A DNA stretch of 62,446 nucleotides, filler included, from Globobulimina sp. (taxonomy: Eukaryota): NCBI GenBank assembly GCA_003354225.1. It is 29 parts of 29 records of this genome, joined end to end, with 100 filler letters (N's around TTAATTAATTAA, not from the genome) between each part and the next. Parts side by side here need not be neighbours in the genome. Positions count along the whole stretch, not along the records: positions 30,207 to 32,263 come from PIVH01009380.1; 28 more parts are not named here. One strand, given 5' to 3'. The notes beneath the pieces were generated by a model that did not search any database, was not told the origin of the DNA, and saw only the letters and a list, made by a program, of their open reading frames with translations. Below are positions 4,217 through 60,291 of this stretch, piece by piece; positions within the stretch are counted from its first letter, which is position 1; each line of letters starts with the position of its first letter. Made by a program: the position numbers and the translations under genes.

Positions 4217-4669
4217 NNNNNNNNNNNNNNNNNNNNNNNNNNNNNNNNNNNNNNNNNNNNTTAATTAATTAANNNNNNNNNNNNNNNNNNNNNNNNNNNN
4301 NNNNNNNNNNNNNNNNTTTTTTTTTATTTTAATTCATTTGGTGGTGTTGTATCACCACAGCACCGATGGATAGTTTCATTGCTTGGAAATGTTAAAAAAA
4401 ATATGTTAGCAACGAATAGCATGTCAACGTGACAAACAACCGATATCAAGCAACATCAAAAAGTACATTTCTTGTTGACATTTTCAAATAAGGTTAATTA
4501 TTCCTCTTATTGTAGTTTTATTCTTATTGTTATTTCGAAATGACAAAGTGAAATATTATATGCATCGATTATTCCTATATTTTGTGAGGAAGAACTACGT
4601 TTCAAATTTTGCATAAGACTTACGTTTTAAATATACATTTTAGATTCCTACTCAACAGAGTGCCAATAA

Positions 4670-8851: not shown

Positions 8852-10611
8852 ATGCAATATAGCAACAGAGTTGGAACCATTCAAACAAAAGCAAATAATT
8901 TTAATACCAACAATGACAGTCATGTGTATGAGTCTGACCTTATTAAATCTGATAATAACGAAACTATGTCGAATATCCTATCAACAAACGATGCGGATCC
9001 ATATTGTTTCTCTGATATCGATATAAAACAACAACAAATAAATAACGAAGATTCCCCATATTCCATGATGTCAATCGATTATTCCACTCAACAACATAAT
9101 GGTAGTTATGGTACAATCACTCCATTTACAGATATTAATCCTACACCACACGCATACGACAAATCATTTGAATTAGAATTAGAATTTCCAGACACAAATT
9201 TGTATGATTCGCCCTTTGATGACACTCTAAAACATATTGCACATATTCATCAAAGGCCATCTCATACAAAAACATCCACTCTCAATCCTCAACCAATGGC
9301 TATGACTATGCCTCGTACGAATATATTAAGCATATTACTATCAAACAGCTGTGCTGGATTTGCCAAGCAACCAACAATATCGCTTGAATCGCAATGTTTA
9401 AATGAAAACGGATATGCTAAAACGAATAATATCTGTGATACCATGAATGGCCAAGTATTTGATGCAACAAAGCATGGCAGTAAGCTTGTTATTAAAAAAA
9501 GACATAAATCATTGGTGTCGAAAGAAAGTGCACTTAAAGAGGCCATAATATTGCGGCATTTGTCTGTGGATAATAAGCCCACAAATGATCACATGGCTAA
9601 ATATGTTCATTTCTTTGAAAGTGAGGATGCGTATTATTTAGTTATGAAGAAAGCGGGAAGTATAAATTTGGCGGATTATAATAAGAAAGCGCATGCTTTG
9701 ATTGCTGAGAAAAAGTTAAAAGTAAAACATTGGAGAAAAGTATGTGTCTTTGTCAAAATGTCGCCATTCTCTAATTATATCAGTTAACGTTTTTTGTTTG
9801 TTTATATATAGATTTTAAAATGCATATTTTGGCAGTTATCAGTAATGATACATTGGTTGCACAATGATATGAAGTGTATGTTTTATTTTGCGTACGTTTT
9901 TAAAATGCGGTTCAAATAATTGTAAATATGTACAGGTTGTCATTTGAATTTAAGTTTATCAAATGTAGTGTTGTTAAATTGCGATTTCATTCAACATAAA
10001 CAGACAGGAAAATATATCGCCGATCCAAACCTTCAAGTGAGATTAGTTGATTTTGGAGCTGCGGAAATCTTTGAGACCAAACATAAAAAGACTTCATTCA
10101 AGTGTATGAAGCAGGTATTTAAAAAAAGAAATTATTTATCTGCGCCAAATGTATATGCGAATCGAATGTATGACGCTGCAAAAGCAGGTTTGTCGGGTAC
10201 TGTATACTTAAATATGTTACATACTGTATTTAATATATAGATATTTGGTGTATGGGCATGATGTTATATGAGTTAGCAACCGGTTTAGAACCATATAAGT
10301 CACAAGATATTGGGCAAGATGTTGGATTTGGTATGGTTTTACAGAATAACTTAAGGGGATTATTAAGGAGACAAAATAAAACAAAGAATGTGAATAAGTT
10401 AATGTTAGCTTTAATGCGTAAAATGTTAAATATTGGGGAGAAGGATAGGATAAATATTCGGGATATTTTGGAGGATGAATGGTTGTGTTTATATTGGAAT
10501 AGATATAAATCACAAATCGATAAAAAGTCATTGTTTCAAACAATAAGAAATAAAACATTGTCGAAAAAAATGCAACATTTTCCGTATTATAATTTAAAAT
10601 ATTATTATTGA
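8852..10611 (+). CDS. Ser/Thr kinase-like protein, probable pseudokinase; introns 9740-9811, 9876-9935, 10188-10240
   Basis: LVIKK, alphaC E (LKEAIIL), catalytic loop CCHLNLSLSN, DFG, APN, DIWCMG. Three GT-AG introns restore the frame. Confidence 0.88.
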
Positions 10612-21936: not shown

Positions 21937-23148
21937 ATGAGCAACAGACGATACAATTTGACAGTATTACTCAACGTATATGATCTACATCCATGCAACG
22001 GATGTTTATGGTATTTTGGATTGGGTTTATTTCATTGCGGTGTACAATTAAAATACGGAGACAACATAAATCGGCGCAGCAAAGAATATTCATATTTAGG
22101 CAACGCACTAACAGAATCCAGCGGAGTTTTTCATTGTGAGCCTAGACATACATTTGGCGCTAAACTTAGAACCACATTACAAATGGGAACGATACAAACA
22201 TCAAATAGAGAATTATCAGTCATCCTGGATAGGCTACGCACTCTGTATTTAGCCAAAGACTATGATATCCTCACAAAGTACGTGCATTCTTTTATTAATT
22301 CCACATTAATTTAACTTAATATTTGCTACAAAACTAGAAACTGCAATCATTTCTGTGATGAATTTGTTTACGAATTGACATCAACGCACATTGCATCATG
22401 GCTCAATAGAACCGCATCCATTGCTTCTTGTTGCAATTGTTGTATTCCTCAAAAATTTTATGACGCATTGGTTGAAATACAAACAAATTATAATCCAAAC
22501 CATGATAATCAGGGCCAACAATCGCCATCTTCCAGCAATAAATATGTATCATGGATTTATTCTAATTCATATTTAAAAGGAACAAAATGCAAAAAAAAAG
22601 GGAAGAAAATCCTCAAAAATGGGTCAATTCGACGCTGCAGCGTTGAGAGTCAAAGTGAGGATCATATAACAAACGGTGAGGATAATCAGGATAATGATAT
22701 TGCTGTTGATGATTATATGAATTATAAACATTCCGTAACTGTTATTGGTTTGAAACATGATGATGAAAAGGCAAAAATAGTTAAAATCCAACCACTTACG
22801 AATGCGAATGGTAATTTAGGAATAAATCCCTTGAATCAACATATTTTATTGACAAATATTCCCAAATTAAAAAACAAAAACGAACATGCAAACAATCGAT
22901 TGCATATTAAAAAATATAAAAATTCGAATGGGTTTAAAATGAGATTATCGGGGCCACAGAATTTGAATAATGTTGGTAATGTAGCATCAGATACGAGTGT
23001 GAGTGCAACAAATAGTAATAATAACAGTGACAATAATAATGACAATGAGAGTGTGAGTGAAACCTCAACAAATTGGGCCAATGCTTCATATCAACGATTA
23101 CCAAAAACACCAACATCTCAACAAAGTATTGATTCTATAGCTATTTAA
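21937..23148 (+). CDS. PPPDE/DeSI family (C97) deSUMOylase/deubiquitinase; intron 22278-22337
   Basis: LNVYDL, GLFHCGV (catalytic His), YDILTK-NCNHF (catalytic Cys, after splicing), WLNR. Confidence 0.92.
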
Positions 23149-30106: not shown

Positions 30107-30306
30107 NNNNNNNNNNNNNNNNNNNNNNNNNNNNNNNNNNNNNNNNNNNNTTAATTAATTAANNNNNNNNNNNNNNNNNNNNNNNNNNNNNNNNNNNNNN
30201 NNNNNNAATTGATAAGAAATTTATTAAGATCGAACCGGTGAAAATTGAAGGCTTTGGAGGTGAAATCAAGTAGCAACCTTCAATTAAACCGCCCGTAGCG
30301 AATAAT

Positions 30307-32263
30307 TTGGATAATGCGAAGAATTCAGATGTTGGGGTTGTAGCGGCCGAGAATGGCATGATTATCGCGGAGGGACTTTGTCAATTTATGAGCAAGAAAG
30401 GTGTGGATGAATGGGTCATTAATGCGATAAAAGGCAAAATAGGCAACGCAACGTATAAAGTGGACAGTGCTGAGGATATGGCCGCGTTACAACGACATGT
30501 TTATAATGCGGTTTGTGTCAATATTCAGTTGAATGCATATTATACTCCACAGCAAAAGTATAATGGGATTAAAAAATCTGAGGCAGTGGGAAACGACGAA
30601 GAGAAAAAGCCAAATGTTTCTGAAACAAAGGATGAAGAGAATGCGAATGGATATCAAGAAGATGATAATAAGAATCAGGACGAAAATGGCCAACTTAACC
30701 GATTGGTGAAACATTATGTGATGACAAATTGCAATGTGCTCCAATCAAAAACAGCCAATGAAGCTTCGAAATATGTGGAATTAGATAGCAATAAATTATG
30801 CCAATTCGTGCGTAATTTGCATGTCGTAGCAGACAAAAAAATAGATTTCATTCAAGATGCATTGAATGATAAATATGATATTTCAAACGAATCATTACAG
30901 GCACAATTATTGAGACAAATTGCGGAAACTATTGTGCTTTACGATGAGTTATCCATTTATTCGTTAAACAAACGAAATAAAAGCAAATCACTTAATTTTA
31001 ATATCGAGTCGTTGGTGGTGGAGTATATTAAGATTGTTGAAGCCATTGTGTATGTTGGACGTGATTATGATAAACACATTCAAAAATATAAGGAGACCGG
31101 CTATGAAGACTATGATTCTGATGAGGAAGAACTTGGCCTTATTTCGACTTTTTGTGATGTCGATGGCCATACAATTTTAGAAAAATGGGGCTTGCAGCAA
31201 TTCTATGAACGAATGGTTGATGAGGGTTGGAAGAATCCGTTGGATTGGATACATATAAACGACCAGGTATTGAAACAATCGCTAGGATTCCGACCAGGCC
31301 ATATTAAGATATTTAATCGCAAGTTTGATTTATGGATCAGAAAATATAACGAAATCCGAACCTCGTATATCACTCCAAAAAAGAAAGGCAAAGATGGTAC
31401 ATTGTTAGTGCGTGCTAACGAGACCAAAATATTGAAATCCAATCATAACTATGAATACACAAAGATAGTGATTCGAAAAGGCGGCAGAATCACCACCGAA
31501 GCGTGGTCACCCACTCATCAACGGGGCGGCGTTTTGTTCATTACAAGTCATCAGGAACTGGTATTGGAGGAGGGCGCAGTGATTAGTTTGAGTGGGAAAG
31601 GCTATTGGGGCTCAGGTACGTTTGTAAGATGGTTTGCGTCGATTTGTATTTAATATGTACGGTATTTCAGACCATCCGGATTTCAAAGGATATGGCCCTG
31701 GCGGTGGAGGCTCGGTGTACAACACAGGCGGTTTGTGTGGAGCGGGTGGAGCTGGATATAGTAAGCCTGGAACAGCTGGATATACGCCGGAATACCTCCG
31801 TGTTGAAGAAGAGAAGTTTTTGGATGATGAGCTGTTTTCTGTTGCTGAAGAAGAGGATGACCAGTTACGGCAACATGACCCAGACAGAATTGAGGGAGCT
31901 GCGGGCAAAGAGTATGGCAATGAGAGAATTGAGTGCTTGGATGTTGATTTTGATATCGATTTCCATGCCAATGGGGATGCAACAGGTACGTTTGTAACAT
32001 AGTTTGCGTTGATTTGTATTTGATATATATGATATGTCAGATGCTGCAGTGAAAAGTCACAGTGCCGCGATGGGCTCAGGTGGGGGATGTTATGCTGTGG
32101 CTGGGGAGAGAACGCGTGGTGGTACAGGCGGTGGTGCTGTGAAAATTGTGTGTGATAAGTTAATAATGTATGAGAACTCTGTAATTCGCGCGGACGGATA
32201 CTTTGATTTAACCAATGCGCATCCACGGACATCCGGAGGATCCGGGGGCAGTGTATGGGTCAC
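30307..32263 (+). CDS. SAM-like domain plus glycine-rich repeat protein, 3'-truncated (start uncertain); introns 31616-31670 and 31986-32040
   Basis: SAM-like LEKWGLQQFYERMVDEGW..LGFRPGHI; GGVLFI..ISLSGKGY, GYGPGGG, GSGGG, GGGAVKI, GGSGGSVW. Both introns restore the frame. Confidence 0.8.
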
Positions 32264-41168: not shown

Positions 41169-42650
41169 TCAGTAATCATCAGAATAATCATCCTCATCAT
41201 CCTCATCATCCTCATCATCATCATCCTCATCTTCTTCATCTTCCCCAATAACAACGTCTTGTTTATCTTGCAAGTCCGATACTAAATTCCTTACATTTCT
41301 ATCAGCCTCATAAAAGTCATCAATATCCATCCCTTCCTGTGTGTAATGATGAAAATAATTTCTCATTCGAAACGCTTTCGAAAATGATGCACATATCCTT
41401 TGAAATACAGTTTTTACTGCAGTTTGATTGATAATTGTTGTGGACATTACTGGTGTAAACTTTTTATAACATTCAAATCCATCCTTGACAAAAGTTGACT
41501 GCATTGGATTGGGTATCCACGCTACAAAATCATCACTCAATTTATCATATAAACTCACACAATATTTATCCATACTATTTATTGCCTCTTTATCATTGCC
41601 TCTATAAAATATGCTGCAACTCATCATTTTGCCAGCTTCATTATGCACATTGGACAAATCCTTCGTGACAGTTTCATTTATTATTTTACTAATATGCCCA
41701 TTAAATATATACTCTTTCTTTGAAAAAAACGGTGAATGTGATAACGTCAGAAAATGTAATCTCGGAAAACAACATGATTCAATTTCCATTTTCTTCAAAT
41801 TTGAGCTCACATTTGGCTCACAAACAAAGCGCAAAGGAGATGTAATTCCACTTAATGCCAACGATAACGCCCAATTTATATCAGCAAAAGTAGCATTTGT
41901 TACATTCAAATCACTTTGAACCACTTTTAATAACTGACCATTGGCAATAACCATGCTTAAATCTGCAAAATCAATCAACTCATTTATGGCTAATATCGAA
42001 TTGTATATTTCTATATTGTTGTTATGATGGTTGTGCATTTTTGCTCCTCTTTGATAATATGAATAATATGAAAAGCCTCCTGTCAAAGACGGGAAAATGG
42101 TATGGGTCAATCTAGTTTTTTTGGGATAAGCATCCGTCAATTTTGTTAATAAAAGTGCAGCAAAACCAGAGCTGAATCCGCCACCCGTTGAATGTAACAT
42201 ATTTATGCCTTGATAATAATTAGAAACACTTTCAATTTGTTTCCTTATTTTATCGCAAACATAATCGATCATATCCTCACCATGCTTGTAATAACCTGTT
42301 GGGAATAGGATGGATGGCTCACTGTATTCGCCACAAAGCAGTGAATCGTTTGCATTCAACAATGATCCCAATGGTGATGCGCTTATTTTATTTATTGAGC
42401 TTTTGTCGATATCAATGAATATTGCTCTTGGGATATATTGATTGGTTATATTGTTATATTTGAAATATGTATTGATTTTATTTAATAATAACTCATCATT
42501 TCGATGCTTCCGGTTGCCAGTAAATTTGCCATTTTTGTCAATTTTATGTTCATTCATTATTGTTGAATAATAGGAATTTCCTCCAAATGTACCGCAACGT
42601 CCAAGACATAATGTTAATATTTCGTTTCCTGATGAGACAGTATCTGTCAT
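41169..42650 (-). CDS. Highly divergent beta-tubulin (retarian beta2-type)
   Basis: EILTLCLGRCG, PRAIFID, GITSPLRF, FPRLHF, FVAWIPN, TQEGMD, DRNVRNLVSDLQDKQD and an acidic tail. Confidence 0.88.
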   Translation of the reverse strand: MTDTVSSGNEILTLCLGRCGTFGGNSYYSTIMNEHKIDKNGKFTGNRKHRNDELLLNKINTYFKYNNITNQYIPRAIFIDIDKSSINKISASPLGSLLNANDSLLCGEYSEPSILFPTGYYKHGEDMIDYVCDKIRKQIESVSNYYQGINMLHSTGGGFSSGFAALLLTKLTDAYPKKTRLTHTIFPSLTGGFSYYSYYQRGAKMHNHHNNNIEIYNSILAINELIDFADLSMVIANGQLLKVVQSDLNVTNATFADINWALSLALSGITSPLRFVCEPNVSSNLKKMEIESCCFPRLHFLTLSHSPFFSKKEYIFNGHISKIINETVTKDLSNVHNEAGKMMSCSIFYRGNDKEAINSMDKYCVSLYDKLSDDFVAWIPNPMQSTFVKDGFECYKKFTPVMSTTIINQTAVKTVFQRICASFSKAFRMRNYFHHYTQEGMDIDDFYEADRNVRNLVSDLQDKQDVVIGEDEEDEDDDDEDDEDDEDDYSDDY

Positions 42651-42799
42651 TTGTGTTTTAACTGAACGATAGTTCGGATACTCGGATTTCGACTTTTGCA
42701 CGAAATAGGAGTGATATATTATTGATAAAAACTTAATTCAAAAAACAATTTACAAACTGTACACAGACGTGGTATAATTATACAAACTGTATCCCTACA

Positions 42800-50116: not shown

Positions 50117-51572
50117 ATGTTGATAATGGCAAGCACATCTTCCTTTGTGTTATTAGCATTACACGTAGTAAGCATCTTAAGTATGAATGGAGTCGATATT
50201 GGTTGTAATTATGTGAATATGGGTGGTATTGGCGTGTCTACAGAGTTCTGTATGACCGTTCCCAATACAACATATGCATTACAGTTAAAATGCAATGGGA
50301 CGTATAATGGAATTAATTTACAAGCATGGGTTGGTGAGAAATGTGACGGAGTACCAGTATCAATGAGTGATTTTACGCAAAATGTGGCAGATTTTTATTG
50401 CGATCCTGCCTATGACGGGATATTATGTCCAGACGTATCATTAAAGACATATCCTGGTTCAGAATGTATTGGCAGTGATTATGATGAATTAAGACTTATT
50501 ATTGACGAATGTTTTTATGCCGCACCAGGACAATATGTCGAAATCACATGTAATTCATCAGAAGCTGAATATTCATTATATAGCTCTAGTGATTGTAACA
50601 TGGATTCATTCCTAAATACCACACTGATAAATGAAGGTACATTCGACGGAGAGAGTGCTGGCTGTATTGCAGTGGATGGATGTGATTATAATCCAACCAC
50701 CACACAAAAACCAGAGATTATACTTCAAGACATTGGCTGTAATTATATGAATGCTGCTGGTATTGGCATCCCATTAAATGACAATTTGTGTGTTCATGGA
50801 CAGTATCGCGGCATGGAATGGTCTGTAAAACTCGCATGCAATCAAACGTATAATGGCGTTGCTGTTGAGATGTGGTTAGGCGATGAATGCAGAGCAACAC
50901 CGCAACACACACAGGTTATGTTCAATATTTTCGTGTCTGTCAGTCTTGAGATAATATACAGCGCTTATTATATATATACAGGATATGACGGGTTTGATGC
51001 CAGATTTCTTTTGTAAGGAATCTTACGAAGGAACGGAATGTGAGACAGTGACATTGGAGGCATATACAGACGATTCATGTTCGGGTGCTCCATTTGCGCA
51101 AATACAGGTTATTCCGGATAAGTGTTTATATGTCGATGCTGACTCGTATTTACAGCTCACGTGTTCTCCAGAAACAGATGAATATATGATGGCTACTTAT
51201 AGTTCGAAGGAATGCGATAGTGCTTCATTGGTAAATTTGCGACCAATTACACATGCTTCATTTTCTATGTATGGCCAGAATGTTGGATGTATGGATGCTT
51301 ACGGTGGTGGTTGTGGTGGTGGTCAATTTTCCACCACACAGAGTGCCACAAGCGATACAAAAAAAAGTCACACTTCAATGACAACAGTGGTTGGCATTTT
51401 TATCGGCGCGGTTTGTATTTTTGTAATTGTTGTTATTATATTTTTTTCAAAGAAAAAGCAATCGGCGCAAATTGCGCACGTTCAATTGGATGGGGGAGAC
51501 AATTTACAAAGGAATGAGGTTGAATTTGTTGAATCTGCCAATCATATTCAGATATTAAGCATCAAGTTTTAA
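50117..51572 (+). CDS. Type I membrane glycoprotein with a duplicated Cys-rich ectodomain; intron 50915-50981
   Basis: Signal peptide; two repeats starting DIGCNY.N..GIG; TM VVGIFIGAVCIFVIVVIIFF followed by SKKK. Confidence 0.85.
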
Positions 51573-59517: not shown

Positions 59518-59899
59518 TGTTTGTGATGTGCAAAACTTTGCTTTTCATCTTTTAATTTTGTAGCATGTCAATTAATAACCACAAGCACCACAATTTCGTT
59601 ATTGACCCACCAGGTGTTTCCGACATATGCATGGATGCAACATCCTCATTTTTCCCTATCACAGCATCACCAAATTTATTCCCAACGACAACGCTTTGTC
59701 CACCTGAGAATAACACATCATTTTCTATGGATAAATGGGATGAATCCTTTGCAAATATAGGTGTCAATACTAGTCGCAACGTAAATAACTCATCAAATAA
59801 TTCATTGACAGACATTGGACCGGACCTCGGCAACAGTTTTTGGAAGTGGGCGTGTGGTGTGTTAGCTGATAATGGGTGCATCTACTGCATTCCTTCTGG

Positions 59900-60291
59900 C
59901 TTGTGGTTCCGGCCTTTTCGTCGGTAGATCTCCGCAAGGAGGCCCCTGCGAAGGCAAGGAAGGCCACGTATTGGCATTGGCCATTTGATGAGCTCACCGA
60001 GAACGGTGCCGCCACACCCGACGCCTCACCAAACAAGGCCCATGCCCGGCTCTCGGGGCAGGAGCTGTGTAAAGGCGTGATCGGCAAGGCGCTGCGATTC
60101 AAAGCAGGACACAAGGGGGTCGTCCTCGGAGATCTTGGCCTCCAGGCGCCGGCGACGCTGTGCTTCTGGCTGAAGTCAGAAAGCGCACAAGCCGACGGGC
60201 GAATTCTATCTCAGCTCGAAGGGTCGACGTTCCAGTCCGGATCCTTTCGCCTGACCGGCGGCAGCCTGCAGGTCTTCAACACACAGGCATG
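59900..60291 (+). CDS. GC-rich bacterial-like LamG-domain fragment (chimeric join)
   Basis: HWPFDE..TPDASPN..GVIGKALRF..TLCFWLK; abrupt rise in GC content. Confidence 0.65.

Follow-up and report, generated by a model that had tools for sequence, protein, structure and literature searches.

Introduction

In the parts of the cited papers on which we draw here, the closest described counterparts of the intron pair analyzed in this work are the same-gene intron duplications (SGDs) of fungi, of which 82 have been recorded, half of them without duplication of exon sequence and read as cases in which an intron may have transposed within one and the same transcript (PMC3609843), together with a few same-gene intron duplications in C. 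elegans that are cited in Collemare et al. 2013 (PMC3609843). A second group of systems is formed by the Introners, for which a family is defined as at least four similar introns, with the similarity confined by the intron boundaries, in non-paralogous genes (Gozashti et al. 2022, PMC9860276). For Oikopleura and Mycosphaerella, intron transpositions have furthermore been inferred (review by Yenerall & Zhou 2012, PMC3443670, Table 1), with reverse splicing, reverse transcription, and recombination as the proposed route. The same review, in the sections considered, links the fungal transposition cases to introner-like elements (ILEs), and describes the route in which an intron is reverse-spliced at a new site and the product then reverse-transcribed as rare and as never having been shown in vivo (PMC3443670).

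As concerns the Rhizaria, no signal of Introners is reported for Lemnamoeba, a member of this group, in the portion of PMC13746701 considered here, which also gives approximately two introns per gene, with an average length of 87 bp, for Reticulomyxa, and the terms Rhizaria, foraminifer, and Reticulomyxa are absent from the main text of PMC9860276. Within the portions of the literature covered by our search, we found no description of Introners or of intron copying in Foraminifera. Introns of foraminiferal actin genes are reportedly the subject of work by Flakowski et al. from 2006.

Here, we describe two closely similar 55-nt introns in a single gene, and our best reading is that the pair represents a same-gene intron duplication, a phenomenon that is rare but already known, in a foraminifer-type host lineage. 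The locus resembles the fungal SGDs, as these are described in the parts of PMC3609843 considered, in having near-identical introns in one gene, in low number, and with unrelated flanks (the non-segmental subtype), and differs from the fungal and nematode cases in that the host is a foraminifer-type rhizarian and the intron is very short (55 nt). The SGD definition given in the same source includes the absence of near-identical copies from other genes of the genome (PMC3609843), and in the present case no copy was found in 57.6 kb of other contigs. The Oikopleura and Mycosphaerella cases, insofar as these are covered in the sections of PMC3443670 considered, have in common with the present pair that the new intron has a homologue among the introns already in that genome.

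Results and Discussion

Composition of the Window and Identity of the Host Gene

The window, by which we mean the whole stretch of DNA that was analyzed (positions 1-62446, 62,446 nt), is not a contiguous locus but a series of 29 contigs, each 2055-2058 nt long, which are sorted by length and joined by 28 spacers of 100 nt, each of the form N(44)-TTAATTAATTAA-N(44) (for example, at positions 2059-2158 and 4217-4316). These spacers are artificial; any feature that seems to span one of them is an artefact, and neighboring "genes" are unlinked. The GC content of the 29 contigs ranges from 27 to 46%, with a value of 41% for the contig that carries the intron pair, on which the host gene is truncated at both ends. 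The features discussed in this work are collected in Table 1.

Table 1. Positions in the window of the intron pair, its host gene, and the other features considered in this work
Feature	Position	Strand	Description
Assembly contig with gene fragment	30207-32263	.	2057 nt; artificial linker at each side
Host-gene span	30274-32261	+	Homologues P0001-P0019
In-frame TAG	30271-30273	+	Aligns to Trp of P0001; G at 30272 (TGG) in 4/4 runs examined
Exon 1	30208-31615	+	5' end cut by contig end; full-length homology to foraminiferal proteins
Intron 1	31616-31670	+	55 nt, GT..AG, phase 1; unspliced in the X1 DNA-type contig, absent exactly in the X6 and X7 contigs
Exon 2	31671-31985	+	315 nt; Gly-rich part followed by an acidic part; 40% identity to residues 190-288 of Bolivina P0015, in colinear order
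Intron 2	31986-32040	+	55 nt, GT..AG, phase 1; 47/55 identical to intron 1; absent exactly in the X6 and X7 contigs
Exon 3	32041-32263	+	3' end cut by contig end; Gly-rich repeat region; 62% identity to P0015 residues 292-369
Background candidate introns	461-511, 10197-10240, 22278-22337, 50915-50981, 59857-59927		Join long open frames on other contigs
Divergent tubulin	41172-42737	-	Pfam Tubulin and Tubulin_C

We found 19 proteins homologous to the product of the host gene (P0001-P0019), the closest of which, P0015 of Bolivina argentea, is 64% identical. Eleven of these 19 were looked up, and comprise eight proteins of Nonionella stella, two of Bolivina argentea, and one ENA record. Other contigs carry intron-poor eukaryotic genes, encoding a divergent tubulin, a Ras-family GTPase, a DEP-domain protein, and a Snf7/UBC protein, and the three tubulin homologues that were looked up out of ten are from Nonionella, Bolivina, and Elphidium, all three of them foraminiferal, with the closest being 50% identical. 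Taken together, 10 of the 11 gene-family homologues and 3/3 of the tubulin homologues are EukProt accessions of Nonionella stella, Bolivina argentea, or Elphidium margaritaceum, and a lineage look-up places the first two of these species among the rotaliid Foraminifera. With the best matches at just 64% identity in the gene family and 50% in tubulin, the window derives from a species other than these. Judged from these protein comparisons, a foraminiferal origin of the window appears well supported, in keeping with the rhizarian-type genome that the first-pass annotation had proposed. As an observation in its own right, the nearest database relatives of the tubulin (P0020 and P0021, from Nonionella and Bolivina, and thus foraminiferal) are merely 49-50% identical to it, and this gene may belong to the unusual tubulin paralogues of Foraminifera.

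The host protein is a member of a multi-copy family of large Gly-rich proteins of up to ~1,900 amino acids, which in the database searched is found only in the Nonionella and Bolivina transcriptomes and in two environmental records. Pfam searches returned no family for the three exon peptides, nor for P0001, P0002, P0005, P0015, and P0016, and among the homologues searched in this way P0019 alone has a domain (SAM_2, residues 376-432). The best score in the ESM Atlas was 0.78, below the useful level, and no paralogue of the gene was found on the other contigs of the window (0/36 tblastn hits fall outside its own contig). We note that the long family members contain a 'GFRPGHIxIFNRKFxxW' region at least twice. 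The in-frame TAG in exon 1 probably stems from an error of assembly or in a single base, or else from a rare allele, rather than being the mark of a pseudogene; a change of the genetic code at this codon was also considered and was rejected, as all four runs examined, that of the probable source sample included, read TGG.

Both 55-nt Stretches Are Spliced Introns

Parts of the contig are present in seven public runs, four of which were examined (X1, X5, X6, and X7). One contig each from X6 (4450 nt) and X7 (1943 nt), two runs from the same sample, is ~95% identical to the window, with 72, 14, and 11 differing letters over exons 1, 2, and 3, respectively, and in both of these contigs the alignment is interrupted at the joints 31611>31667 and 31982>32038, each of which skips 55 nt with GT..AG ends. 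The label of these two runs as RNA is a guess. The X1 contig (1463 nt), from the probable source sample, runs unspliced through intron 1 over positions 30263-31723 with one differing letter. Unspliced intron 2 was not re-observed among the four runs examined, of which X1 and X5 are without cover over 31974-32041; the gap in X5 extends over 31086-32041, and one X5 contig ends at 32042, just within exon 3.

The protein comparison leads to the same arrangement, in that residues 1-190, 190-288, and 292-369 of Bolivina argentea P0015 align to exons 1, 2, and 3, respectively, and none of its residues to the introns, and P0001 passes intron 1 without a break at residue 731. On these two independent lines, namely contigs that skip exactly 55 nt and homologues that are colinear with the exons, both stretches are true spliced introns of the ordinary U2-type GT..AG class that are precisely removed. 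The splicing predicted at both junctions in the first-pass annotation is thus borne out by the X6 and X7 contigs, the run type of which is presumed to be RNA. A second CAG, which is present 9 nt past the acceptor of intron 2 (32041-32049, CAG/ATGCTGCAG/, where here and below a slash marks a splice junction or possible junction), could serve as an alternative 3' splice site in the same frame. At intron 2, the spliced X6 and X7 contigs use the upstream acceptor and not the CAG 9 nt downstream.

The relative from which the X6 and X7 contigs derive differs from the window at third codon positions in 23 of 31 listed differences at 30309-31019 (a hand count, with 51 further rows outside the count), and this excess indicates that the gene copy of the relative is constrained coding sequence. 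The contigs of the relative also have in-frame insertions of 6, 12, and 6 nt compared to the window, at 30297, 30585, and 31855, respectively, and the insertion at 30297 is present in X6 and absent from X7, two runs from one sample, which suggests that the gene has alleles or close paralogues.

A bold reading of these data would take the intron-less X6 and X7 contigs as DNA, in which case a ~95%-identical relative would be without both introns, and both would be very recent gains. Were this so, a relative carrying neither intron would still be consistent with copying, and what would be altered is the dating.

The Two Introns Are Closely Similar in Sequence

The two introns are present in the same gene and in the same (sense) orientation, separated by 315 nt (exon 2). 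Both start with GTACGT and end in CAG, and both are preceded by an exonic CAG and followed by A, and thus lie at CAG/A. An Asp codon is split in each case (G/AC at intron 1, where exon 1 ends in ...GKGYWGS and the first base of this codon, and G/AT at intron 2), and removal of both introns yields a single open frame. Their ungapped alignment has eight differences, at intron positions 13, 16, 25, 37, 42, 45, 47, and 51, six of them transitions and two transversions, corresponding to a raw divergence of 14.5%. The description of the pair as two ungapped, phase-1 introns that restore the frame, from which our analysis set out, is therefore confirmed in its coordinates, lengths, ends, and frame, and the two copies both lie in sense at CAG/A.

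Given the base composition, the binomial probability of at least 47 matches over 55 positions is 2e-16, and when the first six and last three bases are left out as splice signals, 38 of the remaining 46 positions match (P = 1.5e-12). The local alignment of the pair scores 70, compared with a mean of 14.7 and a maximum of 32 for shuffled sequences, with 0/500 shuffles reaching the observed value, and a 36-nt core that is common to both introns has two occurrences in the window, against an expectation of 0.00. The binomial and shuffle results exclude chance similarity. For comparison, five background candidate introns on other contigs (44-71 nt, GT..AG, mostly with GTAYGT donors; unverified, and taken from a noisy ORF-joining scan) show merely 42-58% gapped identity to the pair and to one another. 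The length of 55 nt falls inside the range of these five candidates and is ordinary for this genome.

As to the direction and age of the copying, intron 1 has CpG where intron 2 has TpG at positions 25 and 45, a slight indication that, of the two, intron 1 has stayed closer to the ancestral sequence. The two introns have diverged to an extent comparable to the third-codon-position divergence from the ~95%-identical relative, which we put at ~11% as a rough estimate of our own, and the comparison suggests that the copying is not very recent.

Further Copies and Element Hallmarks

No third copy was found in the other 28 contigs (57.6 kb) by either nhmmer --max or blastn-short. With a two-sequence profile, nhmmer --max recovers the introns themselves at E = 1.8e-14 and 1.5e-13, with the next best hit at E = 1.3, and blastn-short gives no further match in the window longer than 15 nt. 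A 19-base core was also searched for in JGI metagenome contigs (6 loci) and prokaryote genomes (11 loci), collections that probably do not contain this organism, and returned chance matches only: these 17 loci have 27-34/55 identity, are without the 5' GTACGT, and lie in bacterial contexts such as Pelagibacteraceae and Prevotella. From the 57.6 kb, which is a tiny sample, the upper bound on the copy density outside the pair is ~0.05 copies per kb. This bound rules out an Introner load like that of Micromonas and is still compatible with a dispersed family of low or medium copy number. It also means that random dispersal would place two copies on one 2-kb contig with a probability of at most ~10% (our own calculation), whereas local copying expects them there.

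Neither intron has terminal inverted repeats (TIRs; 2/15 and 3/15 matches in the two introns) or a stable fold, with minimum free energies of -6.5 and -7.4 kcal/mol (z = +0.50 and +0.47 in comparison to shuffles) and structures that differ, and Rfam gives no match across the whole window. The first-pass annotation had seen in the CAG before and at the end of each intron a resemblance to a target-site duplication (TSD). However, CAG/GT...CAG/ is the splice-site consensus, and the same pattern is found in one of the five other candidate introns (ACAG/GT...ACAG/), such that the CAG is uninformative as a candidate duplication and this part of the earlier proposal is not diagnostic.

These results bear directly on whether the two introns were each inserted by an intron-generating element, an Introner or introner-like element, that is dispersed in multiple copies and is, or formerly was, active across the foraminiferal genome. 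The pair is like Introners, as far as these are characterized in the parts of PMC9860276 considered, in its similarity from splice site to splice site, sense orientation, and precise splicing, with none in exons; such end-to-end, intron-confined similarity is the first criterion of the Introner pipeline, and Foraminifera are aquatic protists, a group that is enriched for Introners according to the same source (PMC9860276). That both copies are in sense at CAG/A also fits. What speaks against an Introner is the count, with two copies seen, both of them in one gene, compared to the at least four required for a family in the portion of PMC9860276 considered, no copy in the other 57.6 kb of assembly, and chance matches only in the public metagenome and prokaryote contigs, collections that, as stated above, are probably without the organism. 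In addition, DNA-type Introners carry TIRs or TSDs, as described in the same portion of PMC9860276, whereas the present introns are without TIRs and their CAG, being the splice consensus, is uninformative as a TSD. Fungal-type ILEs are longer than regular introns and have a stable fold, in the parts of PMC3609843 considered, and the 55-nt introns have neither this extra length nor such a structure. Taking both sides together, insertion of a dispersed Introner is an unlikely origin for the pair, and we likewise think it improbable that the 55-mer is a member of an intron-generating family that is dispersed and has recently been active, with the copies seen here being independent or locally hopping insertions at CAG/A.

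It is extremely improbable that the pair reflects either a selected function, in the form of a small RNA or a regulatory element carried by the intron, or an artefact of assembly that duplicated a segment. An artefact could be thought of in view of the probable base error at 30272 and of intron 2 not having been re-observed in its unspliced form in the four runs. However, the eight differences resemble ordinary point substitutions, and an assembler would not place a copy that has diverged at another splice site that is in frame; moreover, both segments are required, and have to be precisely removed, in order to match the spliced contigs and the homologues. With respect to function, the Rfam search is negative, the folds do not go beyond those of shuffles, and the two introns have no common structure.

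The Similarity Ends at the Splice Boundaries

The flanks of the two introns, compared over 30, 60, 150, and 300/223 nt on both sides, are no more similar than shuffled sequences, with 134 to 470 of 500 shuffles reaching the observed score, and over 30 nt the ungapped identity amounts to 4 positions upstream and 9 downstream. The similarity therefore stops at the splice boundaries, and the copied unit is exactly the intron, within an ambiguity of 3-4 bases from the common CAG. That the flanking exons are unrelated had already been put forward in the first-pass annotation as an argument against exon duplication, and the nucleotide comparison sustains both the observation and the argument against a segmental duplication. 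At the protein level, the exon peptides give a weak Gly-motif match between HPDFKGYGPGGGGSVY, after intron 1, and HPRTSGGSGGSVW, in exon 3 (E = 0.066); the latter lies ~60 residues downstream of intron 2, which indicates that the introns do not occupy corresponding places within a protein repeat.

We consider it very unlikely that the pair arose by an internal segmental duplication of exon and intron together, with the exons having since diverged, or that two old introns were homogenized by gene conversion. The protein is Gly-rich and repetitive, with the weak resemblance of the two peptides noted above, and half of the fungal same-gene duplications are segmental, according to the parts of PMC3609843 considered, all of which would be in line with such an origin. 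Nevertheless, no flank shows nucleotide similarity, and the peptide match does not adjoin the second intron. Exons that are conserved in Bolivina at 40-64% identity should, furthermore, diverge more slowly than a neutral intron and not faster.

Routes to a Same-Gene Copy

It is, in our view, on balance probable that one intron is a copy of the other, made locally in the gene by either of the two routes discussed below. Local intron copying had been named as an alternative in the first-pass annotation, and is a reading that fits all data.

In the first of these routes, the excised 55-nt intron would be reverse-spliced by the spliceosome into a second CAG/A site of its own transcript, 315 nt away, after which the transcript now carrying a second intron copy would be reverse-transcribed, and the resulting cDNA would recombine with the gene over a short tract such that the parent intron is retained. 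We put forward this RNA route of reverse splicing, reverse transcription, and short-tract recombination tentatively, as a serious possibility that falls somewhat short of an even chance. Reverse splicing is favored because the exact boundaries and the sense orientation need no further assumptions, and the fungal duplications of the non-segmental kind have been interpreted in the same way (PMC3609843).

In the second route, which is the main alternative to the first, the copy would be made at the DNA level, while a break at the second site was being repaired. CAG microhomology would have primed a template switch to the intron that lies 370 nt upstream, and the insertion would have been retained by selection since it happened to be a complete spliceable intron. 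Such a copy would have its source very near and would not need a reverse transcriptase, and the CAG that is found directly to the left of each intron and again at its 3' end allows four possible registers (joints 'cut +4' and 'cut +3'). However, the tract must coincide exactly with a functional intron, which calls for selection among many failed events, whereas this exact coincidence comes naturally from reverse splicing; a microhomology of three bases is, moreover, weak evidence. We regard copying by template switching as doubtful.

Conclusions

The origin of new spliceosomal introns is an old open question, and clean cases with a nameable source are few. Local copying within one gene, which we consider the probable origin of the present pair, would by itself make the pair one further example of a known phenomenon, and further copies in the full assembly would greatly raise its importance. 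If the introns were instead to prove to be Introners, they would be the first reported in Foraminifera or Retaria, and among the shortest known. As it stands, the pair is such a case of intron gain with a nameable source, namely an exact, boundary-to-boundary copy of an intron at a second proto-splice site, with both introns spliced, in the Foraminifera, a lineage with barely explored genomes.
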